A DNA stretch of 63,943 nt from Candidatus Avilachnospira sp. (GTDB taxonomy: Bacteria > Bacillota > Clostridia > Oscillospirales > Oscillospiraceae), in NCBI GenBank assembly GCA_045530865.1, contig JAZSCX010000107.1, positions 1 to 63,943 on the forward strand. Direction: 5' to 3'. Shown here in pieces: positions 8,016 to 58,005 of this stretch. The notes below the pieces were generated by a model, which had not been told where the DNA came from, did not search any database, and was given only the letters and a program-made list of their open reading frames with translations. The translations under genes were made by a program, and so were the position numbers. Numbering within the stretch: position 1 is the stretch's first letter; each line of letters starts with the position of its first letter.

Positions 8016-9056
8016 TTAGATGTCCTTGAGCACGCTCTCGCGGAGAATCTTGTAGATGTGGGGAGGATTGCCGTCCTGCTTCTGCAGCTCCTTGATCTTG
8101 TCGTGGGGCAGGGAAGCGGCCAGACGCATCATGTGGTTGTTCATGCGGACGAACTCGGTAGTGGCTTCGATGCCGTCCATGCGTGCGGGCCAGTTGTCCA
8201 TGATGAACCAGCCGTTCTTGTCATGCAGGTCCATGTTGACATAGCCGATCTGCTGCAGCTTCCAGAAGAACTCCAGACCCTGCCAGAAGCTGACGGTGCC
8301 GAAGATCAGGTCATCGTCGAAGCGGCCCATGTTGTCATTCAGGTGGATCATGGCCAGCAGATCAAAAGCGTTGGCCAGAGCGACACTCTCTGCGGGGTTC
8401 TCATTGCCGAACAGAGCATGGCCGTAGTCCACGATCAGCTTGCAGTTGTCATAGCCGGTCATCTTGTTGACTTCCTGACACAGCAGGATGACCTTGCTGA
8501 CATCGGAAGCATACTGATGGGTCAGAGGCTCGTAGTTCTTGTATTCGAGGGTGCACTTGACGTTCTTGTTGTGACCTGCAATCTCGGCGATGCAGTCTCT
8601 CATGTACTTGTAGTGGGTGACATAGTCATCCTGGAACGGATAGTTGTAGCCGTCGTGAGCCATCCAGAACATAATGTCCACAGCATCGGCTGCTTCTGCC
8701 CAGTCCATGTGACGCTTGCCCAGCTCCACGATGTCGCGGCGGGTCTGAGGATCACGGGCGGCGAAGGTGCCATACTTCCAGTGAGCCTTGGTGTAGTTGT
8801 CGGGGCCGCAGGAACCGACGACGAAGCCGTACTGTGCCAGCTTGTCCTTGTAGGCGATGGGATCGTCCATCTCTTCGCCCAGATACGTGCCGTAGCCGAT
8901 GGCGCTCATGCCGCCGATCTTGGCGAACATTTCCAGCTTTTCTTCGAAGGTGGGCATCTTCATCAGAGGCTTGTAGCCTTCATCGACGAAGCGGTCACAC
9001 ATATTGCTGAAGGTCGCGCCGGCGCACATCAGCTTCATAACATAATTGTCTGCCAT
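8016..9056 (-). CDS. sugar (phosphate) isomerase/epimerase, xylose-isomerase-like TIM barrel
   Basis: 346 aa with a metal-ligand-like pattern (...MAHDGYNYP..., ...LEYKNYEP..., ...VDYGHALF..., ...HLNDN...). RBS GGGAGG is present. Confidence 0.65.
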   Translation of the reverse strand: MADNYVMKLMCAGATFSNMCDRFVDEGYKPLMKMPTFEEKLEMFAKIGGMSAIGYGTYLGEEMDDPIAYKDKLAQYGFVVGSCGPDNYTKAHWKYGTFAARDPQTRRDIVELGKRHMDWAEAADAVDIMFWMAHDGYNYPFQDDYVTHYKYMRDCIAEIAGHNKNVKCTLEYKNYEPLTHQYASDVSKVILLCQEVNKMTGYDNCKLIVDYGHALFGNENPAESVALANAFDLLAMIHLNDNMGRFDDDLIFGTVSFWQGLEFFWKLQQIGYVNMDLHDKNGWFIMDNWPARMDGIEATTEFVRMNNHMMRLAASLPHDKIKELQKQDGNPPHIYKILRESVLKDI

Positions 9057-9511
9057 TTAGAGGTACCTCCCTGTGTAAATTTGAGAGCCTGCCTGCGGAA
9101 AATACGCATACTTCCGCCTTGGATATGGCTGGTTGGGGATATTATACGCCCTTATTATAAATTTGTAAAGTTATAAATATATTATAAGTGAAAGATAATG
9201 CTAAGGATCTGAAAACCCGAAAAAGAAAAACGGCGAAAAAAATTTAAATTCTTTTTCTAAATTTGGCGAAAACCTGTTCATCTGGTACAATATGTTTGCG
9301 AATTGTGCACTATTGTGCATGTTTACAATGTTTGGACATCTGTTTTGTGCAGACTGCATATTGACGGTGCTGCCGGGAAAATGGTAAAATGAGTGCAAAT
9401 GGGATTAGTATGGACTTAAAACTTTTAAGTGATTTGTAATAAAAAATAATTAAAAGATAAGTAAACTGTTTCAGTACAGATCCGATTGAGGAAAGGTAAG
9501 GTACGTCTGCC

Positions 9512-10930
9512 ATGGGTGAACGTGTTGTTCTGGCGCTGGATATCGGCGCAAGCTCGGGACGGGGTATTCTCGGTTATTATAATGAGGAAACCGGCGTTCT
9601 GAGAACGGAGGAAGTCCATCGCTTCGTTCATGAGTTTATCCGTCTCAGCGGCGGTGTCTATTGGGATTATATCGGCATCTACAGAGGTGTTCTGGACTGC
9701 CTGCGTGCGTGCAAAAAGAGAAACATTCCTCTGGAATGCATCGCCATCGATACCTGGGGTCAGGACTATGCCTACATTGGCAAAAACGGTGAGATTCTTG
9801 GCCTGCCCCGCAGCTACCGGGATCCTAAGCCCGAACCCTATGCAGGAGATCTGGAAAAGGATCTTTGCATGGACAGCCATGCTTTCTGCATGCGTACCGG
9901 CGGCCCTGCCGGCGTGATCTCCACGGCACGGCAGCTGTACTATGACCGCCGCTTCCGTACCGATCTCTTCCATCAGGCCCGTTACTGGGTCTATATGCCC
10001 TATCTGTTCGTCTATCTGATGTCTGATGTGGTGGGCTACGATGTGACCCTGCCTTCTCCGGGTGAGCTGCTGGATATCAACACCATGGATATCAGCCCCA
10101 AAACCGCCACGGCTGTGGGTATCGAAAAGATCACACCGCCCCGGTTCCGCAGTGCCACTATCATGGGTCATACCAACCGCGCCGTGTTTGAGGAGACCGG
10201 CTATGAGGCTCTGCCCATCGCCTGTATCGATGCCCACGATACCTCCAGTGCTGTGGATGCCATTCCAGACACCGGCGATTTCCTCTGGATCAGCAGCGGT
10301 ACTTATAATATGTTCGGCGCTGTCATGCAGGAGACCATCCTCAATGACAAGCTGCTGGAGATCGGCTGCCGCAACACCCCTCTGGGTGACGGACGTTCCT
10401 GCCTGATGTGCGGCGCTGCCGGTATGTATTTCATCAACCAGTGCATGAAGTACTGGGCAGAGCACGGCATTGAGGTCACCTTCCCACAGCTGACGGCTTA
10501 TGCCATGGAGCACCGCAGCGACGCGTGGTTCGATTTCAAGGATCTGCCTTCCGTTCCCGTCAATATGCCCGCAGAGATCTGCGCCGCCATTGAAAAGCAG
10601 GGCTTCGCAGCTCCCACTACGCCGGAGGATCTGTATGTGATCTTTGCCAACTCTCTGGCAAAGGAAACGGCAGAGGTACTGCTGAAGCTGGAAAAAGCGC
10701 TGGACCGCAGCTTCAATCTGGTCTATGTGCTGGGCGGCGGCTCCAAGGCTTCTGCAGTCAATATGCGCATTGCGGAGCTCAGCGGCAAAAAGCTCTATAC
10801 CGGACTGACGGAGGCCGCTTCCGTAGGCAATCTGCTGTTCCAGCTCATTGCCATCGGCGCCATCTCCCGTGAGGAAGCTGCCGATGTGTCCCGCAGATCC
10901 TTCCTGCTGGAGGAGTTCGGAGCGCAGTAA
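9512..10930 (+). CDS. FGGY-family carbohydrate kinase, rhamnulokinase-like
   Basis: The N-terminal LALDIGASSGRGILG, IAIDTWGQDY and the C-terminal VLGGGSKA match the RhaB-like branch of FGGY kinases. Confidence 0.75.
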   Translation: MGERVVLALDIGASSGRGILGYYNEETGVLRTEEVHRFVHEFIRLSGGVYWDYIGIYRGVLDCLRACKKRNIPLECIAIDTWGQDYAYIGKNGEILGLPRSYRDPKPEPYAGDLEKDLCMDSHAFCMRTGGPAGVISTARQLYYDRRFRTDLFHQARYWVYMPYLFVYLMSDVVGYDVTLPSPGELLDINTMDISPKTATAVGIEKITPPRFRSATIMGHTNRAVFEETGYEALPIACIDAHDTSSAVDAIPDTGDFLWISSGTYNMFGAVMQETILNDKLLEIGCRNTPLGDGRSCLMCGAAGMYFINQCMKYWAEHGIEVTFPQLTAYAMEHRSDAWFDFKDLPSVPVNMPAEICAAIEKQGFAAPTTPEDLYVIFANSLAKETAEVLLKLEKALDRSFNLVYVLGGGSKASAVNMRIAELSGKKLYTGLTEAASVGNLLFQLIAIGAISREEAADVSRRSFLLEEFGAQ

Positions 10931-10945
10931 AGGCGGTTGATATGG

Positions 10946-11212
10946 ATGAGCATCAAAATCATTGACGGTCATTTCTACACCGGCCCGGTTCCGGAGCAGT
11001 ATGTGGATGACCGCATGCTGGAGACAACACTCCGGGTGATGGATCATCTGGATATTGAACGTGCCATCAGCGCCAACTCCTATATGTTTATTGGACATCA
11101 GTTCGAGCAGTGTCCCATGCTGGGCGTTGTCTACGGCGCCCAGATCTCCGATCTGGAAAAGGAAAAGATCCTGCGCCACAATGCACTCCGTGTGTTCTTC
11201 CATGAGGAATAA
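10946..11212 (+). pseudogene. internally deleted remnant of an amidohydrolase paralogue
   Basis: MSIKIIDGHFYTGP...VMDHLDIERAISAN is fused to ...PMLGVVYGAQISDLEKEKILRHNALRVFFHEE. These align to residues ~1-45 and ~215-260 of the next gene (11256-12038). The HxH motif has decayed to GHFY. Confidence 0.7.
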
Positions 11213-11255
11213 AACATAAACAGCTCCAACAATCAATAAGGAGGTAGACAAACTT

Positions 11256-12038
11256 ATGAGCTTCAAAATCATTGATACACATATGCACTTTGGCCCCGAA
11301 CCCGCACGGATGGTTCCTGATCACTCCGTTGAGAGCCTGGTCGCCATTATGGACCATCTGGACATCGAAAAGGGCATCAGCGCCAACTGCATGTCCCTGA
11401 GCAAAAACCTGTGGGAACAGGGTCTGCAGGATGACTTCGCTGCCTACGAAAAGAGCGGCGGCCGTATTTTCAGTTTCTTCGGTTATGATCCCCTGTACAT
11501 CGATCAGTGCGTGGAAGTCATGCGCAGACATGCCGGTGATCCCCGCTGCGTAGGCATCAAGATTCATCCCAGCGGCTCCAAGGTCAAAGCCGATGACGAG
11601 CGCTACCGCCCTGTCTGGGAGATGGCCAGAGAGCTGAAGCTGCCCCTGATGTCCCACACCTGGGATGTCTCCACCTACAACCCCAACCAGATCTATGCAG
11701 TTGCAGGTCTGTTTGAGAAGTACATCGCTGAATATCCCGATGTTACCTTCGTGTTTGGTCACTGCGGCGGCCGCTACCACGGTATCAAGCAGGCCATTGA
11801 GATCGGCAAGAAGTACCCCAATGCCCACTATGACATCACAGGCGATATCTGGCTCAACGGCTTCATCGAAGAGCTGGTGGACGGCGTCGGCGCAGACCGT
11901 ATCGTCTACGGCAGTGACTGGACCATGATCGAGCAGCGTCCCATGCTGGGCGTTGTGTACGGCTCCAACCTGCCCGCAGTGGACAAGGAAAAGATCCTGC
12001 GGTATACTGCGGCTCGTATTTACTTTGGCGAAGAATAA
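11256..12038 (+). CDS. amidohydrolase-2 (TIM-barrel metal-dependent hydrolase/lactonase/decarboxylase) family protein, catalytic-type
   Basis: DTHMH (HxH), GIKIHPS, MSHTW, FGHCGGR and YGSDW are all present. RBS AAGGAGG. Confidence 0.8.
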   Translation: MSFKIIDTHMHFGPEPARMVPDHSVESLVAIMDHLDIEKGISANCMSLSKNLWEQGLQDDFAAYEKSGGRIFSFFGYDPLYIDQCVEVMRRHAGDPRCVGIKIHPSGSKVKADDERYRPVWEMARELKLPLMSHTWDVSTYNPNQIYAVAGLFEKYIAEYPDVTFVFGHCGGRYHGIKQAIEIGKKYPNAHYDITGDIWLNGFIEELVDGVGADRIVYGSDWTMIEQRPMLGVVYGSNLPAVDKEKILRYTAARIYFGEE

Positions 12039-12071
12039 CGCCGGCTGATATCTGATATAGGAGGTATTATC

Positions 12072-12866
12072 ATGAGCGTACAGAAGCGCAGCGATGAATT
12101 CAAAAAGTGGATCAACGAATCTGACATTATTGATATTGACGTGTGGTGGGATCCCACCTTCGATCAGGGCTTCGTTACCTACAAGGATTTCGAGAAGCAG
12201 ATGGCTGATTACTACGAATTCGGTCTGAAGAAGTGCATCGTCACCAACAAGGCATCCATGATCCGCGATGCCGCCGAAGGCAACGCCGAACTGGCAGAAA
12301 TCATCAAGGGCAAGGAAAACATGTATGGCTGCATGGTGGTTGTTCCTGAGATGGGCTATGTGGACGATAAGGGCGAAGCCTATGTCCAGAGCCTGCTGGA
12401 TCAGGGCTTTGTGGCTGCCCGCATCTTCCCCAAGACCTACATCCACTCCATGCAGGAATACTGCATCGGCCCCATCCTGGATACCCTGGAAAAGCTGGGC
12501 GTGCCCCTGATGCTGTGGCATACTGAGGCCACCTGGGATGACATGGACCGCATCTGCACCAACCATCCCGACCTGAATGTTATCGTGGAAGGCCATGACC
12601 GAAAGCTGCTGTATCATGCTCGCGACTATGTCGGTCTGATGCGCAAGCACAAGAACTTCTTTGTGGAGACCCACAATCTGGTTCTGTTCAACGACATCGA
12701 GACGATCTGCAAGTACTGCGGCTGCGATCAGCTGCTCTACGGCTCCTACTACCCCTACATGACTCCCTACTTCTCTCTGTACCCCGTCATGCAGGCTGTT
12801 ATCCCCGAAGAGGAGATTCAGAAGATCATCGCCGGCAACGCCAAGCGCATCTTCAAGATCGGCTAA
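12072..12866 (+). CDS. amidohydrolase-2-like protein lacking the HxH and strand-8 Asp motifs
   Basis: It is homologous to 47026-47820. The N-terminus reads IDIDVWWD instead of HxH, and LLYGSYYPY replaces GSDW. RBS AGGAGG. Confidence 0.7.
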   Translation: MSVQKRSDEFKKWINESDIIDIDVWWDPTFDQGFVTYKDFEKQMADYYEFGLKKCIVTNKASMIRDAAEGNAELAEIIKGKENMYGCMVVVPEMGYVDDKGEAYVQSLLDQGFVAARIFPKTYIHSMQEYCIGPILDTLEKLGVPLMLWHTEATWDDMDRICTNHPDLNVIVEGHDRKLLYHARDYVGLMRKHKNFFVETHNLVLFNDIETICKYCGCDQLLYGSYYPYMTPYFSLYPVMQAVIPEEEIQKIIAGNAKRIFKIG

Positions 12867-12877
12867 ATACAAAAAAT

Positions 12878-12914: not shown

Positions 12915-13670
12915 TTAAACGATCATCACGTCCACGCCGGCTTTCTGCAGGGCATCGATGGCCTCCGGCTTTGCACCGGAGTCTGTGATCAGCAGATCAA
13001 TGGAGTCCACACTGCCCATCTGCACGAAGCTGACGGTTCCGACCTTGGTGTGATCGGCAACCACAATGGTTTTCTTGGCGCACTCCATGACCACCTGGTT
13101 CAGCTCGCTTTCAAAGTGCATGGCGTTGGTGATACCCATTTTGGCATCCACGCCCTCCACGGAGATGAACAGCTTATCGAGATTGAAGCTGCGAACCTGC
13201 TGAATGGTCTGCACACCGAAGGTGGCGCCCAGCTGCCGGTTCATGGTGCCGCCCAGAACGACAACCTTGGCGTTGGGAAGCTTCTGCAGCTCCAAAGCAA
13301 TGTGCATGGAGTTGGTAACGGCAATAAAATGCACTGCCGGGTCAATAAAGCGGGCCACCTGACGGGTGGTGCTGCCGGTGTAAAACAGCACGGCGTCTCC
13401 GTCCTCGATCAGTTTTGCGGCGGCCTTGCCGATCCGTTCCTTCTCGTCGATGTGGGAGACCAGTTCAAAATTGTCGTTGGCGATCCGGTTATTGCTGGCA
13501 ACGACCTTTCCGAACAGCCGCTTGCAGACGCCCAGCCGTTCCAGATAGATCAGGTCACTCCGCAGGGTGACGGAAGATACGTTAAACATTTGGGCAAGCT
13601 GACTGGTTTGCAGTTCCTGACGCTCCATAATCAGGCGCTTGAGTTTTTCCCGTCTTTGTACAATGTCCAT
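12915..13670 (-). CDS. DeoR/GlpR-family transcriptional repressor
   Basis: MDIVQRREKLKRLIMERQELQTSQLAQMFNVSSVTLRSDLIYLE is a DeoR HTH, followed by a C-terminal sugar-phosphate sensor domain. The start was chosen at the internal ATG that has an RBS. Confidence 0.85.
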   Translation of the reverse strand: MDIVQRREKLKRLIMERQELQTSQLAQMFNVSSVTLRSDLIYLERLGVCKRLFGKVVASNNRIANDNFELVSHIDEKERIGKAAAKLIEDGDAVLFYTGSTTRQVARFIDPAVHFIAVTNSMHIALELQKLPNAKVVVLGGTMNRQLGATFGVQTIQQVRSFNLDKLFISVEGVDAKMGITNAMHFESELNQVVMECAKKTIVVADHTKVGTVSFVQMGSVDSIDLLITDSGAKPEAIDALQKAGVDVMIV

Positions 13671-13766
13671 CGTGCTCTTTCCTTTGTTTTTGTTATTTTT
13701 TAATTTCAAAAGATTTTCATTTGCTAATATCTATATTATATTATCTATTTAATGTTTGTCAACCCG

Positions 13767-13828: not shown

Positions 13829-14959
13829 ATGAAAACTGTTAAATTTGGTATTATCGGCTGTGGCCTGATGGGCAAGGAATTCGCCGGCGCTGCCGGTCGC
13901 TGGTCTCACCTGAACGAAGAGATCCCCGCTCCCGAAATCATCGCTGTCTGCGACGCCAACCCCGCTGCTCTGGAATGGTTCACCAACCGTGTGGACACCA
14001 TCAAGTACACCTACAACGATTACAAGGAACTGCTGGCCAACCCCGAGGTCGAGGCTATCTACTGCGCCGTTCCTCACGTTCTGCACAAGCAGATCTACGT
14101 TGATATCATCGACTCCGGCAAGCACTTCCTGGGTGAGAAGCCCTTCGGCATGGATCAGGATGCCAACAACGCCATCATCGAGGCATGCAAGCGTCATCCC
14201 AACTCCGTGGTCCGCTGCGCCTCCGAGTTCCCCTTCTATCCCGCCTGCCAGAAGCTGATCTCCTGGATCAAGGAAGGCAAGGTCGGCCGCATTCTGGAAG
14301 TCAACGCCGGTCTGAACCACTCCTCCGATATGGATCCCAACAAGCCCATCAACTGGAAGCGTATCATCGGTGTCAACGGTGAGTACGGCTGCATGGGCGA
14401 CCTGGGCATTCACACCGAGCACGTTCCCTTCCGTATGGGCTGGATCCCCCAGAACGTCTGCGCCAAGCTGTGCAAGTACGTCACCGAGCGCCCCGACGGC
14501 AAGGGCGGCATGGCTCCCTGCGAGACCTGGGACAACGCCACTCTGGTCTGCGATGTGAAGGATGCCGACGGCAACGAATTCCCCATGACTCTGGAAATGA
14601 AGCGCATGAAGCCCGGCGCTACCAACGACTGGTATCTGGAAGTCTATGGCATGAAGTCCTCCGTGAAGTTCTCCTCCGATGACCCCAACGCCTTCTACTT
14701 CTCCCAGCAGATGGGCGCTGAGCAGGCATGGTGCCGCGTTGTTGTCGGCAACAAGCCCCAGTTCCCCACCGCCACCGGCGCCATCTTCGAGTTCGGCTTT
14801 GCTGACTCCATGCTGCAGATGTGGGCTTCCTTCCTGAAGGAAATCGACGGTCAGGAAGTGGAATTCGGCTGCTTCCGTCCCGAGGAAAGCATCATCTCCC
14901 ACAAGCTGCACACCGCTGCTCTGCGTTCCCAGAAGGAAAAGACCATCGTTTCGCTTTAA
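13829..14959 (+). CDS. Gfo/Idh/MocA-family NAD(P)-dependent oxidoreductase
   Basis: MKTVKFGIIGCGLMGKEF is a Rossmann GxGxxG motif; EKP is seen in ...HFLGEKPFG.... RBS AGGAGG. Confidence 0.85.
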   Translation: MKTVKFGIIGCGLMGKEFAGAAGRWSHLNEEIPAPEIIAVCDANPAALEWFTNRVDTIKYTYNDYKELLANPEVEAIYCAVPHVLHKQIYVDIIDSGKHFLGEKPFGMDQDANNAIIEACKRHPNSVVRCASEFPFYPACQKLISWIKEGKVGRILEVNAGLNHSSDMDPNKPINWKRIIGVNGEYGCMGDLGIHTEHVPFRMGWIPQNVCAKLCKYVTERPDGKGGMAPCETWDNATLVCDVKDADGNEFPMTLEMKRMKPGATNDWYLEVYGMKSSVKFSSDDPNAFYFSQQMGAEQAWCRVVVGNKPQFPTATGAIFEFGFADSMLQMWASFLKEIDGQEVEFGCFRPEESIISHKLHTAALRSQKEKTIVSL

Positions 14960-14986
14960 TCTGCAATGAAAACAGGAGGACCGAAT

Positions 14987-16180
14987 ATGGATCCGAAAAT
15001 TTCCATTGGTATTGACAATTGTTTTGCCCTGAAGCGCTGGGTCACCCCCTCTGAGTGGGCCCGTGTGATCCGCGAAATGGGCATGAAGTACGTGGAAGGC
15101 GTGGCCGATCTGGAGATCGAGCCTCTGCTGACCCCCAAGGCCTGCCACGATCAGTGGATCGAGGAAGTCAACGAGCAGAAGGCCAAGCACGGCGTGCAGG
15201 TGGTCATGATGTACTCCAATGACTCCACCTATGATACGGCCGGTTTTGCCCATCCCGATGCCCGCATCCGCGATTACTATGTGGATGGCTGGTTTGACGA
15301 GTATATGCGCATCTCCGGCGCCATCGGCGCCGATGTGGGCTACTTTGTCCATGGTGTTCCCGAAGAGATCCTGTACAACAAGGCCCGCTATGAAGAAATG
15401 GGACGCAATGTGTATGACTGCATGAACCGCGTTGGCGATCAGGCCAAAAAGTATGGCGTGAAGCATGTGGCGCTGGAGCAGATGTACACCCCCCATCAGC
15501 CTCCCTTCACCATTGCCAGCATGCGCCGCCTGATGCAGCAGACCCTGAAGGACGGCCACTATCCTCTGTATGTTACCGAGGACGTGGGTCATCACTGCCC
15601 CTTCTATCTGCGTCCCACCGAAGAGACGCTGGTCAAGGGCTTTGCCCGTTACTGCCAGGATGGCTACATCCCCCTGTGGCTGGGCAGCCTGAAGGCACAG
15701 GATCTGTTCACCGGCGAACGCAAGGCAGGCCGTGACACCCTGCGCAAGGAAACCATTCAGGCCATTCTGGAGGATGTGCAGGAGAACGGTCACCTGTTCT
15801 CCGAAGAGAAGGACAATGACTGCTATCAGTGGCTCAAGGAACTGGGCTGCTGGTCTCCCACGGTCCATCTGCAGCAGACCAACGGCAAGTCCTCCGGTCA
15901 TGCGCCCTTCTCTCCCGAGGCCAACGAGGATGGCATCATCCATCCCGTCAAGATCCTGCGCGCCCTGAAGGAAGCCTACGATCAGCCCGAGGATCCCACC
16001 ATGCCTGAGCGCTGCGATCACATCTACCTGATCCAGGAGCTGTACCTGAGCACCAAGGATATCGGTTATCAGGGCTTGCACAAGCTGGGCTGGAGCACCG
16101 ATTATCTGCGTAAGTTCATTCCCAGAGACGATATGCCTCTGAGCGAACTGCTGGAATACAACAAGCACGTTGAATTTTAA
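14987..16180 (+). CDS. xylose-isomerase-like TIM-barrel protein (sugar isomerase/epimerase/dehydratase fold)
   Basis: MDPKISIGIDNCFALKRW...ALEQMYTPHQ...VTEDVGHH. RBS AGGAGG lies before the ATG at 14987. Confidence 0.7.
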   Translation: MDPKISIGIDNCFALKRWVTPSEWARVIREMGMKYVEGVADLEIEPLLTPKACHDQWIEEVNEQKAKHGVQVVMMYSNDSTYDTAGFAHPDARIRDYYVDGWFDEYMRISGAIGADVGYFVHGVPEEILYNKARYEEMGRNVYDCMNRVGDQAKKYGVKHVALEQMYTPHQPPFTIASMRRLMQQTLKDGHYPLYVTEDVGHHCPFYLRPTEETLVKGFARYCQDGYIPLWLGSLKAQDLFTGERKAGRDTLRKETIQAILEDVQENGHLFSEEKDNDCYQWLKELGCWSPTVHLQQTNGKSSGHAPFSPEANEDGIIHPVKILRALKEAYDQPEDPTMPERCDHIYLIQELYLSTKDIGYQGLHKLGWSTDYLRKFIPRDDMPLSELLEYNKHVEF

Positions 16181-16197
16181 TGAAGGAGAATATAAAT

Positions 16198-17736
16198 ATG
16201 CTGAAGAATATTTCCCGTTCCCTGGAAGATATGCTGGGCAAGCCCTATATGGATGCTGTCCAGGAAACCGCTGTTGCCCTGCTGGGTCTGGATCCCGCTG
16301 AGGCCAAGGCTCTGGCCACTGACAAGGTCGACTTCTATCCCGATTGCTTTGCTGCCCGCGCCGACGCCATGGCTGCCAAGGTTGGCCAGCAGGTCGTCAA
16401 CCCCTTCGTGAATGATCTGGTTGGTGCTCCCACCGAATCCTTCCGCAAGGCCACCCATGTCAATGCTTCCCCCATCGGCGGTATGGGTACCGTCCGTGTG
16501 GGTCAGGACGGCCGCGCTTACATCGCTGCCAAGTCCGAGCACTATCACATCCCTCTGGGCCACAACTTCCCCGGCTATAAGCTGGTCACCAAGGGCCGTC
16601 AGCTGGGCATCCTGAATGCTACCCACAACAACACCCGCGGCTACATCACCCGCCGCATGGAAGAGCAGATCGTCATGGACGCCAATGGCATCACCGAGCG
16701 CGGTGCTGAGCTGGATGCCATCATCGCTTCCAAGGAACCCAAGGTTCTGAACCGTCTGATCAGCCTGGAAACCGGCTCTCTGGCTGTGGAAGCTGCTCTG
16801 AAGATGATGCTGACCCGCTTCTACCGTCTGGACAAGACCTTTGGCGAGCCCAAGTACGCCGGCAAGACCCCCGTTTTCATGATCATGCAGGACAACGACG
16901 GCGGCCCCGAGGCTAACTACCACGGCACCACCATCTTCGCTCAGACCCTGCGCGGCATGTGGCCCGAGTTCCGTGGTGTCTGCGAGAACGCCGGCCTGTA
17001 CAAGGTAGTTCCTGTTAAGCCCAACGATCTGGCTGACTTTGAAGCAAAGATCAAGATGTACAACGAAGGCAACTACAAGACTGCCGGCTTCATGCATGAG
17101 ATCATCCTCATGAACTATGGCGGCATCCGCCTGACCAAGGAGTTCCTGCAGGGCGCTTATGCTCTGGCTGCACAGTATGACACTCCCACCCTGTCCGACG
17201 AGATCCAGTCCTGCATGTGGTACAAGGGCATGTTCCTGTTCCGCGAGTACGGCCTGAAGCCCGACTTCGTCATCATCGGCAAGGGCTTCCCCGGCGGCGA
17301 GTATCCTGCTTCTAAGGTCATCACCACCTATGAGATGGACAGCCTGAACCAGTTCGGCGCTCTGGTCACCAACGGTCAGGAAGAACTGGCCAGCCTGGCA
17401 TACCTGCTGACCATGGAATATGTCCGCGAGAACGGTGCTGAGATCGAGGCTATGGGCGCTCTGATCGAGAGCAAGCTGAACGAGCTGGCTGCCAAGTATC
17501 CCGCTCAGATCGACAAGATCGAGGGTCTGGCACATCTGGCTGCCATTCACTTCCAGACTGTGGAGGCCGCTGCCGAGTTCGCCAAGGTCGTCAACGGCAT
17601 GTGCATCGACGTCAGCGCACAGCTGTACAAGGCAAACTGCCCCCCTGCAGTTCTGCTGAAGCTGCCTCTGGTCACCAGCGAAGCTGTTCTGGATGTCTGC
17701 ATCGAGAAGTTTGAAGCTGCTCTGGCTCAGATGTAA
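16198..17736 (+). CDS. class-III (PLP fold type I) aminotransferase-like protein
   Basis: ETGSLAVEAALKM, DEIQSCMWYKGMFLFREYGLKPDFVIIGKGFPGGEYP (Schiff-base Lys context) and ATHNNTRG are present. RBS AAGGAG. Confidence 0.7.
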   Translation: MLKNISRSLEDMLGKPYMDAVQETAVALLGLDPAEAKALATDKVDFYPDCFAARADAMAAKVGQQVVNPFVNDLVGAPTESFRKATHVNASPIGGMGTVRVGQDGRAYIAAKSEHYHIPLGHNFPGYKLVTKGRQLGILNATHNNTRGYITRRMEEQIVMDANGITERGAELDAIIASKEPKVLNRLISLETGSLAVEAALKMMLTRFYRLDKTFGEPKYAGKTPVFMIMQDNDGGPEANYHGTTIFAQTLRGMWPEFRGVCENAGLYKVVPVKPNDLADFEAKIKMYNEGNYKTAGFMHEIILMNYGGIRLTKEFLQGAYALAAQYDTPTLSDEIQSCMWYKGMFLFREYGLKPDFVIIGKGFPGGEYPASKVITTYEMDSLNQFGALVTNGQEELASLAYLLTMEYVRENGAEIEAMGALIESKLNELAAKYPAQIDKIEGLAHLAAIHFQTVEAAAEFAKVVNGMCIDVSAQLYKANCPPAVLLKLPLVTSEAVLDVCIEKFEAALAQM

Positions 17737-41513: not shown

Positions 41514-42554
41514 TCAACCCTCCAGCTTTGCAAAGATCTCTTCCAGAACCTTGCTGATGGCGGCAGCCATGCTGAAGAAGCCCAGATCAGTGGGATGGCA
41601 GCCGTCCACGGTGCCTTCATCACCGGCAATGGCCATCAGCTCGGGACCGGACAGGAACCAGACGTTTTCATCACCGGCAGCCTTGGCCCGCTCATAGGTG
41701 CCCTTGACGATATCGCGGCGGGCGGTATCGTCCTCGTTCAGATAGAACTTGGGGCGGGACATCATGAGAATGGGCAGGTTGGGCTGGGCGGCACGGATGA
41801 TATCGAACATCCGGCCATGGTGGATGGCCAGCTCCTCCGTGGGGGAGTTGTGGTCATAGTCCATGACGAACACGCTCATCTTGAGGGATGCGATGTACTC
41901 CGCAATCTCTACTTCGCCTCTGGCGCTGCCGTTGAAGCCCAGACTGATGTAGTCGGAATCGAAGCGGCGGGCAACGATGTTGGCGTAGGCCATGCCGGAG
42001 CGGGAGGCACAGCCGCCATGGGTGATGGAGGAACCGTAATACACAATGGGGGTCATGCGGCTGTAGTCCGGGGCTTCCTCCAGCAGGCAGCCCTCTGCCA
42101 GACCGATGCTGACCTCGCTGGTCTCGGCAAAGAGGGGCATATTGATGGTGATGAGCTGCTTTCTGGGGATCAGCTCCACAATGGATTCATATTTATCCAC
42201 AAAATCGGCAGGGAACATGAAGGTGCCGCCGTACCGGGTCTCACCCTCGTAGGTGGTGTAGAGGTCATAGCCTGCGCCGCCGGTGAGGGTACCGTGGCAG
42301 TCTCTGGTGGTGGCAACCTTGGTGCGGATGATCACATAGGGACTGTCGGTAATAAAGCGGATTCTGCCGCCTGCACTGCAGCGGGAGTTGCCGTAAACGG
42401 GCTCGCTGACCTTCCGTGCGGCTTCATCGGGCATTCTGCGGAAGACGCCGTCCTCCATCCATACACCGTGGATGCGGAAGGGTGCCTGCTGGGGGTCAAA
42501 GAACGTTACATCAGGCTTGTTGATCTCGCCTCTGGTGGGATATTCCTTGTTCAT
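41514..42554 (-). CDS. SGNH/GDSL-type hydrolase with N-terminal GxDLY-type beta domain (carbohydrate esterase-like)
   Basis: GAGYDLY occurs in the N-terminal domain. YYGSSITHG is block I and DGCHPTDLG is block V (DxxH). Confidence 0.75.
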   Translation of the reverse strand: MNKEYPTRGEINKPDVTFFDPQQAPFRIHGVWMEDGVFRRMPDEAARKVSEPVYGNSRCSAGGRIRFITDSPYVIIRTKVATTRDCHGTLTGGAGYDLYTTYEGETRYGGTFMFPADFVDKYESIVELIPRKQLITINMPLFAETSEVSIGLAEGCLLEEAPDYSRMTPIVYYGSSITHGGCASRSGMAYANIVARRFDSDYISLGFNGSARGEVEIAEYIASLKMSVFVMDYDHNSPTEELAIHHGRMFDIIRAAQPNLPILMMSRPKFYLNEDDTARRDIVKGTYERAKAAGDENVWFLSGPELMAIAGDEGTVDGCHPTDLGFFSMAAAISKVLEEIFAKLEG

Positions 42555-42571: not shown

Positions 42572-45500
42572 TCAGCGATAATAGTGGATGACCATGGGCT
42601 TCAGGATGCCGTTTTCGGTGCGCGTGGCGCCGAATTCGCCGATGGAGCAGGCGAACTGATTGGCACGGGTGGAGGTAACACGGATTTCAATGGTGTTTTC
42701 GCCTTCCTTCAGGAAGTCGGTCAGGTCAAATTCGTCTGCCAGCCACAGCTTCTGGCCCACATATTCGCCGTTGACATAGACCTTGGCGGCATCGTCGGTG
42801 TTGGTGGTCAGGGTGATCTTGCCAAAGCCCTGTTCGGGCGTGAAGGGGACCGTGTAGATGCCGTCGCCGGCGTAGTAATAGTAGCCCGCATTCTCCCAGC
42901 CGCCCACGGGGATGGTTTCTACAGGAGCGGTCATGCGGTCATTGTCCACGCAGAACGCGCCGGAGAGGTACACATAGGGCGGTACATTGGGCTTGCCGAT
43001 GTTCTCGGTATAGCCTTCCAACTCAAACAGGTTCTCGCCCACATGGAGCAGCTGGGCAATCTCCGTGGTGAAGTCGGCGGGAGACCAGCGGATGCAGTTG
43101 CAGCCGTATGCCAGTTCTGTGCCGTTGACAGCCAGACGGGTGACGCGATCGACCTCGGCGTTGAGAAGCACGCTTTCGGGCAGATGGTCGATCTGTACCT
43201 TGGCGCGGAGCTTGAAGGGGGCGTTCTTGGTCAGATGGACCCGGTCGGAGAAGCACATATACTTGCAGGCTTCCCACTCTCCGGTCAGGGGATTGAACAT
43301 TTCGTAGGTCAGGGGCAGATAGTTGCCGTCAGCGGCAGTGAAGGTGTAGGGGCCTTCCAGTGCCACGGCATGGTCCTCTTCGGCAGGCTGTGCGGAAGAG
43401 ACAGGCATTTCGGTGCTCTTGGGATCGCGGATGATGGCGATCATCTCATAGCCGTCCAGCATAAAGGACATTCTGCCGTTTTCCACGGTATAGGGCACCT
43501 CGGCGCTGGTCTCGTGGGTCAGGAGGTGCATACCGGGCAGGGCGTCAATTTCCACGGAGGCAGGCTTGGCATTATCATTGAAGATAAAGTAAACCTCGGA
43601 CTCTTCGTTGCTGCGCTTGGAAATATACACGCCGGTGTCGGCACAGATATTCAGCACCTTGCCGCCGACGATTTCCCGGAAGGCGGTGCGGTACAGACCG
43701 GCATCCAGCGGGAATGCGGGAGGATTGATGAAGTATGTGCTGCCATCAGAGGTGACGTTGGCGGCGGGCAGGAAGGGCTTCCAGTTGTAGCCTGCGTCAA
43801 AGCCTTCGCCGGTGTCCACATTGACGCCTGGGACGGCATGGGTGAACACGGTGGTGACGTTATGAGCCCGCAGTTCTTCCAGCAGCGCCTTGGTTTCCTT
43901 GTTGATGTAGAACATTCTGGGGAATACCAGAGCGTCGTAGCGATAGCCGAAGGCCTCCACATAGCCATCGTGGACGGTGATCTTGTCGGTCATATGCTCG
44001 GAGAACAGATCGTAGCCGATGCCCTCCATCAGCAGAGCTTCAATGGTGTCTACATAGGAGCGGTTTTCGGGCAGATCCAGATTGACGATCTCGTTCCACT
44101 TGTTCTGCATCCACAGATACCATTCCTGCTCCTGCTGCATGATGGGGATAAACACCAGCACACTGCTGTCGGGCTTGGTGGCAGCGGACAGGGCAGAGAA
44201 GGAGGCCATATAGCCGCCCAGATCGCGGTACTGGGGGTACAGCGTATTGACGAAGGAGTGGTTGGGAGGCAGTGCGCCGCAGTAGGTCTTGGCAGCGCCG
44301 CCCATGGAATAGTGGGCGCCCATGTACTGGATCCAGTTGACGCCCTGCACCATCAGGCGGTTGGCAATGCGCTGCATGGTGGGCAGACGCATATACCAGC
44401 CGGAGCCGGTGTAGGTTTCGCAGAGCACGCGATCAGAGCCGCAGAACTTGGCGGCGGAAGCGGAGAGCTTGGGTGCGGTATCAAAGGACAGCCAGTCGAT
44501 CTTCAGAGAGGAGAAGATGGAATCGAGACCGGGAATGTCGAACAGGGTCAGCTCTTCCAGCATATCGCCCTGGAACAGGTGGCCGGCAACGTTTTCCTCA
44601 CCGCCGAAGTGTCCGGTGAAGATCAGGTTGTTGTCATGGCACCACTGGCTGTACTGGCGCATGAAGCAGTCAAAGTACATCCGCTTGACGGTGGCGCGGT
44701 AATCATGGACGGCCTTGATCTCCTCGGGGGTCTTGGCGGGAATGGTCCACAGGGTGTACAGCCAGGGCAGGATAGAGTAGCCGTGATCCTTTTCAAATTC
44801 TGCCGGGAAGCTGTCGCACCAGGGGCCTGCGATGGAATAGTCGAAGTGGCGCAGGGAAGTGGGCTCATCGGTAAAGGCGCCGCGGACGGTCTTGCCGAAT
44901 TCGTCGCCGATGAACTGCTTGTAGCGGCCGTGGGTCAACTCCAGAAACTTGGCAACGGCGTCGGGATTGAACATATCCACATATCCCAGAATGTTGTCAG
45001 CACCGGCGCGTCCGGTACCGGAGGGCAGCAGCTGCAGATTGTACTCAACAAAATAGAACAGGGCGCGGCCGCCGAGGTGGGTGGAGTTGTGGACGTATTC
45101 CAGATTGGTGTACATACCGTGTTTTTCCAGCTTGCACTGGTCGGTGATGTCCTCCACATAGGTCTTACCGTCCAGCTCGGTAATCAGCTGTGCGCCGATA
45201 AATTCACCGGGGCGGACGACGGAAACACGGTGGCTGGGGCCGTAGAGCACATGATCCTCCACCCGCAGTTCCTTCTGGCGATATTCGGGGAAGTCACGGC
45301 AGAGGATACCACCGGCGGTGCCGGAGGGGAACTCGTACTCGTCATAGATCCAGTAGTACATACCCAGTCGCTTGGCCTCCTTGACCACGTGCTGGATCAG
45401 CTCCATGTAGCGGTCGGAAAGGTACTCAATGCCGAAGCCCACGGCGGGATGGATGAAGAAGTTGGTGATATTCTGCTGGCGGAATTTTTCCATCTCCCAG

Positions 45501-45610
45501 GTGATGCGCTCTTCCGTGACTGTGTCATTCCAGAACCACATCATCAGGGGGCCAAAGTCGGTATGGGGCGTTTTGAATTCCTGAATCAGAGAATTGCAGT
45601 CTTTTTTCAT
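42572..45610 (-). CDS. large glycoside-hydrolase-like protein (GH106 alpha-L-rhamnosidase-like; family assignment tentative)
   Basis: 1012 aa. The N-terminus reads PLMMWFWNDTVTEERI...NITNFFIHP. The C-terminal jelly-roll reads ...VYVNGEYVGQKLW...GENTIEIRV. RBS GAGGGA precedes the ATG at 45610. Confidence 0.6.
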   Translation of the reverse strand: MKKDCNSLIQEFKTPHTDFGPLMMWFWNDTVTEERITWEMEKFRQQNITNFFIHPAVGFGIEYLSDRYMELIQHVVKEAKRLGMYYWIYDEYEFPSGTAGGILCRDFPEYRQKELRVEDHVLYGPSHRVSVVRPGEFIGAQLITELDGKTYVEDITDQCKLEKHGMYTNLEYVHNSTHLGGRALFYFVEYNLQLLPSGTGRAGADNILGYVDMFNPDAVAKFLELTHGRYKQFIGDEFGKTVRGAFTDEPTSLRHFDYSIAGPWCDSFPAEFEKDHGYSILPWLYTLWTIPAKTPEEIKAVHDYRATVKRMYFDCFMRQYSQWCHDNNLIFTGHFGGEENVAGHLFQGDMLEELTLFDIPGLDSIFSSLKIDWLSFDTAPKLSASAAKFCGSDRVLCETYTGSGWYMRLPTMQRIANRLMVQGVNWIQYMGAHYSMGGAAKTYCGALPPNHSFVNTLYPQYRDLGGYMASFSALSAATKPDSSVLVFIPIMQQEQEWYLWMQNKWNEIVNLDLPENRSYVDTIEALLMEGIGYDLFSEHMTDKITVHDGYVEAFGYRYDALVFPRMFYINKETKALLEELRAHNVTTVFTHAVPGVNVDTGEGFDAGYNWKPFLPAANVTSDGSTYFINPPAFPLDAGLYRTAFREIVGGKVLNICADTGVYISKRSNEESEVYFIFNDNAKPASVEIDALPGMHLLTHETSAEVPYTVENGRMSFMLDGYEMIAIIRDPKSTEMPVSSAQPAEEDHAVALEGPYTFTAADGNYLPLTYEMFNPLTGEWEACKYMCFSDRVHLTKNAPFKLRAKVQIDHLPESVLLNAEVDRVTRLAVNGTELAYGCNCIRWSPADFTTEIAQLLHVGENLFELEGYTENIGKPNVPPYVYLSGAFCVDNDRMTAPVETIPVGGWENAGYYYYAGDGIYTVPFTPEQGFGKITLTTNTDDAAKVYVNGEYVGQKLWLADEFDLTDFLKEGENTIEIRVTSTRANQFACSIGEFGATRTENGILKPMVIHYYR

Positions 45611-46222
45611 TGGATTTCCCTCGCTTTTGTTAAGTATGGTAATGGAGCTCCATGAGTTTGAGAACACCGTTTTCATTCACGCGGTCGGCATAGTACCACA
45701 GGGCGCCGATCTCGCAGGTAAACATGTTCTGATGGGTAAATTTCGATCAATTTTTGCCGGTTTTTTCAAGACAATGGTCAGACACCGTCTGCTTGATGCG
45801 ATTATAGCATATTCCATCCGATGTGACTATAGAAAAAACAGATTCTTGTCATTTTTTTATGGTTGCATCTGTCCCTCCGTAGGGCGGCCAGACTCTTGTC
45901 CGCCGCACGAAAAACCATCAGCAGGGGCTGCGGTGGTCATGGGCATTTCGCCGCCTTCTTTTCCGCAGACGATGGCCAGCATGGCGCGGCAGGCATCCTT
46001 GCCGGCATTTTCTTCCGGTGTGAACAGCCATGCTGCTCCGCGCGGCTCAGTGCACCGTCACAGGCGCTCATGCCGAAGCATTCGCCGCTGTCGGTTTCCA
46101 GACCGGGCAGGGTGCGGACACTGTGTGCCCGCAGATGTTCCAGAAGCATGCATATTCGGCGTCGGGGTTTTTAAATTGCTTTAGTATCATTGATCATAAT
46201 TTGCCTCCTGTAAGACAATTTG

Positions 46223-47002
46223 TTAAGCAATATGGAACAGACGGGCGGCATTGTTGCCGAGAATCAATTCTTTCTCCTCTGTGGAGATATTGGCGCCCAG
46301 AACCATGCCGATCTGGAAGGAAAGGTCGAACCAGGAGATATCGCTGGCAGCCAGCAGGTGATCGGCGCCCACATGCTCCACCATGTACTCCACAAAGTGA
46401 CGGTTGTAAACATCGCCGCCCATGTCAAAATAGGCGTTTTTATGGGTGCTGCCGATTTCGGCGGCGGCCTGAATGCCCTTTACGCGGCCACCGGAGTGAC
46501 CGAAAATAAAGTTCACTTCCGGGAATTCTTCCAAATTTTGCACAAATTGATCGGGGGTGGAGTACTTCTGCTTGGGGTTGGAGGTCAGTGCCCAGGTGTG
46601 GGACATGATGACCAGACCGTAATCACGGGCGCGCTCCCAGACAAGCTTGTACAGGGGGTCATTTGCCCAGGTGGAGTGGTCGGAGGGATGGATTTTGATA
46701 CCGCGGAAAGCGGGATCATCGTGATAGGCATCAATGGTGGCAAGGTCGATCTCTGCCACCCGGGGATCGAACAGGAAGTAGTTGAGAACCCGTCCGTTGG
46801 ACTTTTCATACAGGGCTTTGCAGTCGGCGGCATAGGTGCGGTGAGCCTCCAGATCCGGAACATGCTCCAGAGCGCGGCAAAGGGACTGAACCATATAATC
46901 GCAGCCGATAGCATCCATATGCCGCAGGATAGAATCATCATCCCAGTTAAAATTCATCATATTGGCAGTCTTCTGAAAATGAGCATGTGTATCAACGATC
47001 AT
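46223..47002 (-). CDS. amidohydrolase-2 family protein, catalytic-type
   Basis: MIVDTHAHF (HxH), GIKIHPS, MSHTW, FGHSGGR and AASD are present. It is a paralogue of 11256-12038. Confidence 0.8.
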   Translation of the reverse strand: MIVDTHAHFQKTANMMNFNWDDDSILRHMDAIGCDYMVQSLCRALEHVPDLEAHRTYAADCKALYEKSNGRVLNYFLFDPRVAEIDLATIDAYHDDPAFRGIKIHPSDHSTWANDPLYKLVWERARDYGLVIMSHTWALTSNPKQKYSTPDQFVQNLEEFPEVNFIFGHSGGRVKGIQAAAEIGSTHKNAYFDMGGDVYNRHFVEYMVEHVGADHLLAASDISWFDLSFQIGMVLGANISTEEKELILGNNAARLFHIA

Positions 47003-47025
47003 AGTGGAATACCTCCTGTCATTGG

Positions 47026-47820: not shown

Positions 47821-48045
47821 AAACAAAACTCCTTTGATAGAATATTTGAACGGATAAGCGGATTGCGGATTATACAAAGAAAGACATTGTGGAGCGTCTC
47901 TCTGAATTACAGGTTATTGCAGCACCTGACTTTAGCTTATGATACAGCCGACAGGGAAGATAGTCAAGCACGAATTCAACGTAGATTTACGAAAAATTAT
48001 TCATCGGAACCCGTAAGGTACGAGCACCTCCGATGGCAAATTAAA

Positions 48046-53200: not shown

Positions 53201-53290
53201 TTCGATGCAAGTATTTTCTTCGCCCATTTTGCTGCGGAGCAGACGGAAAACGGCCTGCTGGCTCCCATGGAACTGCATTTCTATCATTAA
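50225..53290 (+). pseudogene. GH106-like glycoside hydrolase paralogue interrupted by one in-frame TAG at codon 42
   Basis: RBS AAGGAGA precedes the ATG at 50225. MSMNSETLIREFRDPSGDYTPLLMWFWSDVITKEQITFQME-TAG(50348-50350)-MREQNITNFFVHP aligns colinearly with the N-terminus of the 42572-45610 protein, with Lys in the paralogue at the stop position. Confidence 0.8.
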
Positions 53291-53315
53291 ACCCAAATAA
53301 AAAGGAGTGCTTGCT

Positions 53316-57992: not shown

Positions 57993-58005
57993 AGTCAAAC
58001 CTCTT

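Follow-up and report, generated by a model that had tools for sequence, protein, structure and literature searches.

What is the role of a protein that shares the fold of a metal-dependent enzyme, sits beside it in the genome and has lost the residues that would hold the metal? This question is raised twice by the stretch of DNA analyzed here (63,943 nucleotides, contig JAZSCX010000107.1 of the Candidatus Avilachnospira sp. assembly GCA_045530865.1; hereafter the window), in which each of two gene pairs encodes an amidohydrolase-2 protein of the catalytic-type subfamily, referred to as A (A1 and A2), and a member of a degenerate partner subfamily, referred to as B (B1 and B2). A1/B1 constitute locus 1, and B2/A2 locus 2. 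An earlier reading of the letters alone (the sequence-only reading) had taken the pair for a heteromeric enzyme with one active and one pseudo-enzyme subunit, acting on a lactone or acid derived from a deoxy-sugar. Judging from the sequence comparisons described below, we consider it probable, if well short of certain, that A and B are one obligate two-subunit amidohydrolase-2 enzyme, which would have its single active site in A and a role in sugar catabolism. There is good support for A and B working as one functional unit of two proteins, one of them degenerate, and the assignment of the reaction is the weakest part of this account.

Two paralogous gene pairs encode a complete and a degenerate amidohydrolase-2 protein

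All four open reading frames (ORFs) were found where the sequence-only reading had placed them, and the pairing that it described goes well past what chance would produce. In locus 1, A1 (11256–12038, forward strand, 260 amino acids) is followed by B1 (12072–12866, forward strand, 264 amino acids) with 33 nt between stop and start. In locus 2, B2 (47026–47820, reverse strand, 264 amino acids when read from the ATG at 47820; a start at the TTG further upstream, at 47877, agrees less well with the family alignment) is followed by A2 (46223–47002, reverse strand, 259 amino acids) with a spacer of 23 nt. Along transcription, A precedes B at locus 1 and follows it at locus 2, an inversion already described in the sequence-only reading. 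Its claim that the two pairs are paralogous was borne out by BLASTP, in which A1 and A2 shared 36% identity (E = 5e-56) and B1 and B2 32% (E = 3e-41); A and B proteins shared 19–25% with each other (E = 0.009 to 7e-8), with no significant match between A2 and B1. The motifs on which that reading was built are all literally present: IIDTHMHFG, GIKIHPSG, LMSHTWD, FGHCGGR and YGSDW in A1, IVDTHAHF, GIKIHPSD, IMSHTWA, FGHSGGR and AASD in A2, IIDIDVWW and GSYYPY in B1, and IFDIDCCI and GTYSPY in B2.

Against the PF04909 model, a comparison that the sequence-only reading had suggested, all four proteins scored above the gathering score of 26.4 bits, A1 and A2 clearly (110.7 and 83.9 bits) and B1 and B2 only borderline (26.5 and 27.7 bits). 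When a 31-sequence alignment of the A family was compared with a 22-sequence alignment of the B family by hhalign, the two profiles matched with 99.1% probability (E = 6e-19) over 242 columns. AlphaFold2 (AF2) models of A1 and B1 had pLDDT values of 94.4 and 95.4, respectively, and eight strand-helix repeats each. Both models hit PF04909 structures in Foldseek with a probability of 1.0 and TM-scores of 0.65–0.77 at 12–18% identity; the structures matched by both were ACMSD, gamma-resorcylate decarboxylase, LigW, LigJ and the uncharacterised small proteins 3nur, 3cjp, 3ij6 and 6uvz (A1 model against ACMSD, gamma-resorcylate decarboxylase and LigW: TM about 0.72–0.77). Since the A and B models retrieved the same solved structures, B does not have an unrelated fold, an outcome that the sequence-only reading had named as fatal to its proposal; by its profile, B is a full-length homologue of A, and it is modelled with confidence as the same amidohydrolase-2 barrel.

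The A and B subfamilies themselves are without a close solved structure and carry only generic names in source databases. A1 found nothing among PDB sequences by phmmer at E <= 0.01, and its 170-amino-acid core gave only weak PDB matches, in which an alignment with 3cjp was the target. Regarding NCBIfam, no model matched A2, B1 or B2, and A1 showed only a 12-bit match to 4-sulfomuconolactone hydrolase. The A profile reached PDB chains of the ACMSD clade remotely (E about 1e-11, 12–18% identity).

B has lost the metal ligands and kept a different set of residues

The putative ligands of A1, D7, H9, H11, K102, H134, H169 and D221, were conserved in 68–73 of 73 relatives and in 43–46 of the 46 A domains of the fusion proteins described below. 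They comprise the HxH motif on strand β1, Lys on β4, His on β5, His on β6 and Asp on β8; because of the extra invariant Lys on strand 4, this is by its sequence pattern a dihydroorotase-type ligand set (the six-residue pattern of subtype I). In the A profile, H134 aligned with the histidine of ACMSD VHPW and D221 with the aspartate of ACMSD GSD. On the other hand, B1 has D23 and W25 in place of the HxH histidines, R117 in place of the β4 Lys and Y226 in place of the β8 Asp. The same holds across the B family: the HxH histidines are replaced by Asp/Asn and Trp in most members and the motif is found in none, the strand-4 Lys has become Arg, the strand-6 His position is variable, and the β8 Asp has become Tyr, Phe or Gly, being retained in only 3/44 sequences and 3/46 fusion domains. 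In a weak alignment of B1 with E. coli dihydroorotase, R117 stood opposite Lys102 and H150 opposite the His of VHGE. This residue census confirmed the conserved cassette of the sequence-only reading, in which one protein has a complete ligand set and the other is a same-fold paralogue without it.

The losses in B are accompanied by conservation elsewhere. D21, N71, R117, R184 and E/D199 persist across the whole B family, whose sequences are only about 30% identical; R184, in the helix after strand 6, was present in 43/43 sequences, in 42/46 fusion B domains and in 86/103 representatives of solo B. The B clade that includes the window pair also keeps H150, K178, Y181 and H201, which are lost in most fusion B domains and in many solo B proteins. 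These alignments give a clear indication that B is under purifying selection rather than decaying, and from the missing ligands we infer that it is catalytically inactive, a pseudo-enzyme. Its conserved polar residues (D21, N71, R117, R184 and E199) could bind a ligand or complete the active site of A.

A and B are coupled by adjacency, fusion and common inheritance

Two scans addressed the co-occurrence of the subfamilies. Searching one genome per species with the B profile gave 8 loci, all from Clostridia or Bacillota metagenome-assembled genomes, and in 8/8 an A gene directly adjoined B on the same strand, two of the loci having tandem A copies. Metagenomes searched with the A profile gave 80 loci and, together with loci fetched otherwise, 74 loci with an A-subfamily gene. 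A same-strand B lay within 1.3 kb in 59 of them; in the other 15, the contig ended less than 360 nt from one side of A, so that the informative loci were positive in 59 of 59 cases. The sequence-only reading, which would have been given up had the two subfamilies failed to co-occur, was upheld in this respect. The strict adjacency spans host-associated and environmental metagenomes. More distant relatives of A (about 85–135 bits on the A model) were mostly without B and served as a partner-less outgroup.

The two proteins also occur as domains of one chain. Seven metagenome ORFs on raw contigs encoded B and A together, and the B profile, run against 1.84 billion cluster representatives, returned 159 clusters at E <= 1e-30, the best 150 of which included 103 solo B proteins, 44 B-A fusions and 2 A-B fusions, one of the latter (P0143) being close to the window pair. 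P0168 is another of the natural fusions. Fusion in both orders implies independent fusion events. Two further candidates, P0058 (462 amino acids) and P0059 (373 amino acids), were rejected as fusions, being chimeric sequences with only the first ~45–85 residues in common with B1. The pairs have also diversified together: over 37 loci, the pairwise identity matrices of A and B correlated with r = 0.90, a value reached in 0 of 2000 Mantel permutations, and B was less conserved than A in 97% of locus pairs. The nearest foreign A and the nearest foreign B fell in the same loci (L001–L004 for pair 1, L009 and L010 for pair 2), indicating that the pairs are inherited as units.

The 46 fusions and the 59/59 adjacency strongly suggest, at the level of gene organization, that A and B form a physical heteromer. 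The heteromer with a pseudo-enzyme subunit put forward by the sequence-only reading stands as far as the coupled unit is concerned; the complex itself and the inactivity of B are what we infer from these data. That B might simply be a functionless duplicate of A in decay would be in line with the loss of the canonical ligands and with its faster evolution. However, the frame of B is intact in all 59 loci and all 46 fusions, its invariant residues are held across highly diverged sequences, its fold is predicted with confidence, and its adjacency to A is strict in metagenomes of such different origin. The conservation data already refute this explanation, to which we give practically no credence.

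A candidate arginine supplied in trans

How could a subunit without metal ligands be needed by its partner? In the scheme that we propose, the ancestor would have been a homodimer in which each subunit gave an Arg to the active site of the other, and a duplication would have produced A and B. The metal site would then have survived in A and the Arg in B, each having disappeared from the other subunit. A would thereby provide the sole metal-dependent active site, with B retained as its dimer partner: Arg184 of B probably completes the site of A in trans, and R117 and E199 may help to bind an anionic group of the substrate. In many organisms the enzyme would be a single chain of two domains.

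This scheme draws on the distribution of one arginine. The A position aligned with R184 of B is variable (K, L, V, R or Q), while 16 partner-less outgroup proteins have the six ligands together with an Arg conserved within the helix after strand 6 as part of a QVRAI motif. By HMMER alignment, R184 corresponds to the Arg of 3ij6 that lies 11 residues past the strand-6 His. The strand-6 His of ACMSD is presumably residue 228, which would make its spacing to Arg239 the same as in 3ij6. ACMSD needs Arg239 of the neighbouring subunit, according to the title of PDB entry 4ifk. As read from the alignments, the pattern in A, B and the outgroup fits a homodimeric ancestor followed by complementary loss.

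Several points weigh against a shared active site. The equivalence of R184 in B and Arg239 in ACMSD depends on approximate alignments (within 1–2 positions) and on presumed residue numbers. Consecutive enzymes of a pathway also adjoin each other or are fused, so adjacency and fusion leave a common site unproven. Moreover, in the model the conserved polar residues of B occupy the C-terminal strand ends, the place expected of an active site belonging to B itself, and with H150, K178, Y181 and H201 retained in the window-type clade, B may have an independent metal-free activity or ligand site.

An alternative along these lines would make B an enzyme in its own right, with a remodelled metal-free site, catalyzing the step before or after A, so that adjacency and fusion would reflect pathway coupling. 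LigI and uronate isomerase demonstrate that metal-free sites are possible in the amidohydrolase superfamily, and fusions of consecutive enzymes are common, RhaEW being an example. In the AF2 model of B1, D21, R117, H150, K178, R184, E199 and H201 are arranged at the C-terminal ends of β1 and β4–7, the canonical catalytic face, and the clear purifying selection on B would be expected of an enzyme. However, only D21, N71, R117, R184 and E/D199 survive family-wide; since H150, K178, Y181 and H201 are mostly lost in fusions and often in solo B, they offer a poor basis for a conserved catalytic apparatus. In addition, B evolves faster than A in 97% of comparisons, and the way the Arg is distributed over A, B and the partner-less outgroup is complementary. 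We therefore regard an independent B enzyme as unlikely and favour the two-subunit enzyme.

Gene neighbours point to a rhamnose-like substrate

The sugar contexts noted in the sequence-only reading, an FGGY kinase with an isomerase at locus 1 and GH106-like proteins with SGNH esterases at locus 2, were both found. Locus 1 has a xylose-isomerase-like TIM barrel (8016–9056, reverse strand; PF01261), distantly RhaI/XylA-like with 65.6 bits on the RhaI_grampos model (cut-off 531), and a rhamnulokinase-like FGGY kinase (9512–10930, forward strand; PF00370 and PF02782) with 193 bits on TIGR02627 (cut-off 528). Beyond B1, a DeoR-family regulator (12915–13709, reverse strand; PF00455 and PF08220) is divergent from a downstream operon on the forward strand with a Gfo/Idh/MocA dehydrogenase (13829–14959), a 404-amino-acid AP_endonuc_2 TIM protein (14966–16180), both labelled by Pfam and NCBIfam, and an atypical class-III aminotransferase-like protein of 518 amino acids (16180–17736; only 78 bits on PF00202). 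This trio also adjoins A/B in L006, L007 and L010, and resembles an oxidise-then-transaminate logic on a sugar.

At locus 2, a GH106-like glycosidase of 1034 amino acids (42572–45676, reverse strand; PF17132 49.8 bits, BT4145-type alpha-L-rhamnosidase model 107 bits against a cut-off of 1300) and an SGNH/GxDLY esterase (41514–42554, reverse strand) lie downstream of A2. On the forward strand are an AraC regulator (49219–50178), a second GH106-like protein of 979 amino acids (50351–53290) and another SGNH esterase (53307–54005), identified by Pfam and NCBIfam. GH106-like genes also adjoin A/B in L008, L010 and L025. Both ~1000-amino-acid proteins of the window are remote from known GH106 members (50–62 bits in Pfam, ~100 bits on the BT4145 model with its cut-off of 1300); they may form a distinct glycosidase subfamily, and its substrate would name the pathway.

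By clustering all ORFs in 73 loci (L001–L073), the most frequent neighbour was an FGGY kinase (24 loci), followed by a RhaI/XylA-like TIM barrel (21), a class-III aminotransferase (Aminotran_3; 19), a short-chain dehydrogenase/reductase (SDR; 17), a URO-D-like protein (10), a DeoR regulator and a Gfo/Idh/MocA dehydrogenase (8 each), an MttB-like protein (6), and an L-rhamnose mutarotase and a GH106-like glycosidase (4 each, the latter in addition to the window). The kinases scored up to 386 bits on the rhamnulokinase model (cut-off 528), and the SDRs 188 bits on L-rhamnose 1-dehydrogenase Lra1 and 196–209 bits on a glucose 1-dehydrogenase subfamily model (cut-off 215); class-III aminotransferases, SDRs and kinases alike had only generic or sub-threshold NCBIfam matches. 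DegT-type aminotransferases appeared three times among 112 other same-strand neighbours. In three further genomes, the operon reads YjbQ, SIS, YjbQ, binding protein, ABC ATPase, permease, rhaM, AP_endonuc_2, AP_endonuc_2, FGGY, A, B, in which the SIS protein may take the place of the aminotransferase. The YjbQ, SIS, YjbQ triplet heads this rhaM/kinase/A/B operon in L093–L096 (positions ~1–1650), which represent three or four independent genomes. The assemblies in which the operon occurs include GCA_034927375.1 and GCA_045591015.1.

MttB-like genes (trimethylamine-methyltransferase family) and URO-D/MtaA-like genes flank environmental B-A pairs in L007, L029, L038, L039, L048, L052–L055, L063 and L065. 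Here corrinoid-type methyltransferases adjoin a sugar-like module; the substrate may be methylated.

The reaction: a possible deacylation and its alternatives

Because of these recurrent families, the module has, by its gene content, the appearance of a pathway for a rhamnose-like sugar in which an enzyme handling an amine (class-III aminotransferase, DegT or SIS) is needed as well. The neighbours point to a modified, possibly amino-, 6-deoxyhexose and not specifically to a lactone. The substrate would be rhamnose-like, probably a modified (N-acylated amino- or otherwise substituted) 6-deoxyhexose freed by the GH106-like glycosidases; the rhamnulokinase-like kinase and the RhaI-like isomerase would belong to the module too, as would a dehydrogenase and either an aminotransferase or a SIS protein. 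NagA and AgaA are amidohydrolase-superfamily deacetylases that act between a kinase or phosphotransferase system and a deaminase (NagB, or the SIS protein AgaS), and in A/B modules, too, a kinase is found together with an aminotransferase or SIS protein. In view of this analogy to kinase, NagA/AgaA and NagB/AgaS, and of the hydrolase-type ligand set of A, we favour a hydrolytic step, most likely an N-deacylation of the NagA/AgaA kind or the opening of a lactone or lactam ring. N-deacylation of an amino-6-deoxyhexose or its phosphate is the tentative choice within this range, and the analogy leaves it a suggestion with more room for error than for confidence. NagA and AgaA differ from A/B in belonging to PF01979, in having an extra beta-sandwich domain and in being homo-oligomers without a dead partner, with no sequence relationship detected. 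The deacylase assignment also lacks sequence-level support, the nearest solved structures being decarboxylases and hydratases at 12–18% identity; we know of no N-deacetylase in PF04909, and at locus 2 there is no kinase beside the pair.

The lactone or acid substrate of the sequence-only reading becomes one of several readings in the light of the kinase, isomerase and aminotransferase neighbours and the dihydroorotase-like ligands. As a sugar lactonase, A/B would follow an aldose 1-dehydrogenase, the order of steps in the non-phosphorylative catabolism of rhamnose and fucose. PF04909 does include sugar lactonases, an SDR stands near the pair in 17 loci, often directly adjoining it and with the sub-threshold Lra1/glucose 1-dehydrogenase scores given above, Gfo/Idh/MocA dehydrogenases occur in 8 loci, and the structural matches include 6uvz, a small amidohydrolase-2 protein from Bifidobacterium. 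However, membership in the cog3618 type, which the sequence-only reading had proposed to check, received no support: among PDB chains of cog3618 lactonases (LigI, fuconolactonase-type) there was no match for the A profile at E <= 0.1 or for the B profile at E <= 1. A kinase and isomerase are present, whereas no aldonate dehydratase or KD-sugar aldolase is found among the recurrent neighbour families, and the YjbQ/rhaM/FGGY/A/B operons, of the Christensenellaceae type, have no dehydrogenase. A lactonase thus seems to us an unlikely answer.

Alternatively, A/B could supply the missing C-C lyase of the module, a metal-dependent aldolase acting on the ketose-1-phosphate that the rhamnulokinase-like kinase produces. 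In this alternative 6-deoxyhexose pathway, a mutarotase, an isomerase and the kinase would be followed by A/B as the end step in place of RhaD/FucA, and A/B would be a retro-aldol C-C lyase, a chemistry new to the amidohydrolase superfamily, whose site is completed in trans by the Arg of a dead paralogue; we hold this version, like the aldolase in general, to be quite unlikely. What speaks for it is the operon of three independent genomes (ABC transporter, rhaM, AP_endonuc_2, AP_endonuc_2, FGGY, A, B), in whose order A/B occupies the rhaD position of rhamnose operons. In addition, neither the labelled gene clusters nor the 112 other same-strand neighbours contain a recurring aldolase family, and the nearest structural clade performs C-C chemistry (decarboxylases, the hydratase LigJ and the C-C hydrolase LigY). 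On the other hand, the six-ligand set of A with its β4 Lys is typical of hydrolases, locus 2 joins A/B to glycosidases and esterases without a kinase or isomerase, a canonical aldolase may be encoded elsewhere in these genomes, and the recurrent aminotransferase, DegT and SIS genes are left unexplained. To our knowledge, there is no aldolase in the amidohydrolase superfamily.

Taken at face value, the closest solved structures (the decarboxylases ACMSD, gamma-resorcylate decarboxylase, LigW and IDCase, and the hydratase LigJ) would make A/B a decarboxylase or hydratase of a keto-sugar acid or its phosphate, by analogy with the kinase, decarboxylase and TIM-epimerase sequence of the 3-keto-L-gulonate and tetronate pathways. 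The dehydrogenase, TIM isomerase and kinase neighbours do resemble acid-sugar pathways such as LyxK/SgbH/SgbU and OtnK/OtnI/OtnC. However, the identity to those enzymes is only 12–18%, A has the β4 Lys where ACMSD has GIQIGN, and a neutral sugar, not an acid, is what the genes for a mutarotase, a RhaI-like isomerase and a rhamnulokinase-like kinase suggest, which makes this chemistry improbable in our view.

Comparison with known systems

Full-text literature searches found no paper on the A/B subfamilies, and the only relevant precedent found was AibH1H2. In this 2-aminoisobutyrate hydroxylase from Rhodococcus wratislaviensis, two jointly encoded paralogues of the PF04909 fold form a heterodimer: AibH2 carries the catalytic metal centre and AibH1 is auxiliary, thought to maintain the quaternary structure (PMC10401708). 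The A/B architecture is therefore not unprecedented: the novelty assumed in the sequence-only reading holds for the specific subfamilies and not for a PF04909 heterodimer as such. AibH1H2 and A/B are alike in being two co-encoded PF04909 paralogues, one catalytic and one auxiliary, although A/B is known here from genes. Unlike B, which is without metal ligands, AibH1 binds a mononuclear metal, and AibH2, from an aerobe, is an oxygenase with a dinuclear Mn/Fe centre that works with a reductase, whereas A/B belongs to anaerobic Clostridia and to sugar loci. AibH chains in the PDB gave no match to the A profile at E <= 0.1 or to the B profile at E <= 1, and genes for Rieske proteins, reductases or oxygenase partners were absent from the recurrent A/B neighbours. 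What would be new relative to AibH1H2 is the ligand-less auxiliary subunit, the hydrolase-type catalytic site and the anaerobic sugar-catabolic setting.

The ACMSD/COG2159 decarboxylases (gamma-resorcylate decarboxylase, LigW, IDCase) share the fold of A/B and are its best structural matches; ACMSD-type enzymes are obligate dimers that need an Arg of the neighbouring subunit (PDB 4ifk title), as is proposed here for A/B. They differ in being homodimers with two equivalent sites, in having no β4 Lys, in their low identity to A/B (12–18%) and in acting on aromatic or unsaturated acids, not sugars. With dihydroorotase, A shares the full HxH/Lys/His/His/Asp pattern and B has R117 opposite the carboxylated Lys102, but the similarity is remote (E = 0.01–0.1), and a carboxylated Lys bridging two metal ions, which characterizes the binuclear subtype, is only a candidate feature of A.

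Other enzymes with a non-catalytic relative or an inactive barrel are more distant. PyrC' of the Pseudomonas ATCase is an inactive amidohydrolase-fold protein retained as a structural subunit; it partners an unrelated enzyme, whereas B partners its own active paralogue. In the E. coli tagatose-bisphosphate aldolases KbaY/KbaZ and GatY/GatZ, encoded in amino-sugar or galactitol operons with a DeoR-type regulator, a metal-dependent TIM barrel needs a related non-catalytic subunit for full activity and stability; these belong, however, to the class II aldolase superfamily (PF01116/PF08013) with a different chemistry. In trypanosome AdoMetDC/prozyme, the active enzyme pairs with a catalytically dead paralogue in a heterodimer and depends on it for activity (PMC5201418). 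B similarly lost its catalytic residues and is yet under purifying selection; the fold of AdoMetDC/prozyme is unrelated, the system is eukaryotic and the role of prozyme is regulatory.

Other features of the window

Between the kinase and A1 lies a 91-amino-acid ORF (A', 10937–11212, forward strand), the leftover of another A gene in tandem with A1. What survives of A is the first ~50 amino acids and the C-terminal ~35–58, with the middle ~170 deleted and HxH changed to HFY, and both of its ends matched A1 (E = 5e-17) and the first A copy of L001 (E = 1e-13) in BLASTP. Two intact A copies occur upstream of B in L001 and L003 and downstream of B in L013.

As read from the sequence, AGGAGGT ribosome-binding sites precede B1 (12059–12065, forward strand, 6 nt upstream of the ATG) and the ATG of A2 (47011–47017, reverse strand). 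A terminator-like hairpin with a 14-bp stem (48083–48053, reverse strand) ends the gene preceding B2, and a promoter-like site (47939–47967, reverse strand) upstream of B2 was seen in a consensus scan, which is no evidence of function; because of these two signals, B2-A2 may be a transcription unit of its own. The preceding 231-amino-acid protein (48089–48784, reverse strand) has an N-terminal hydrophobic stretch and no Pfam or NCBIfam match.

Several long ORFs of up to 1023 amino acids (8058–9176 and 42584–45655 on the forward strand, 9425–11272 and 11088–12872 on the reverse strand) run antisense to real genes and were rejected as artefacts because of their poor codon-usage scores and lack of homology; they are most likely an effect of composition (55% G+C), and would be mis-annotated under naive ORF calling. 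Elsewhere (57462–59031, reverse strand), two adjoining ORFs of 341 and 120 amino acids belong to the transaldolase/fructose-6-phosphate aldolase family, the shorter covering only profile positions 54–151 and possibly being a fragment. The same block also encodes a PfkB kinase, a Zn-dependent dehydrogenase, an aldehyde dehydrogenase, an IclR regulator and a glycerate kinase.

Significance

Annotation pipelines name both proteins 'amidohydrolase family protein', which masks the inability of B to bind metal. If the heteromer is real, it would be a sizeable family, with at least 159 clusters at 50% identity matching the B profile at E <= 1e-30 and with members in gut Clostridia and diverse environmental metagenomes. 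It would also be an apparent evolutionary example of how a homodimeric metalloenzyme turns into an obligate hetero- or pseudo-dimer by complementary loss. For the organisms that carry it, A/B would stand for a step, so far uncharacterised, of a conserved catabolic module that handles a rhamnose-like and possibly amino-substituted sugar and is associated with GH106-like glycosidases of very divergent sequence.

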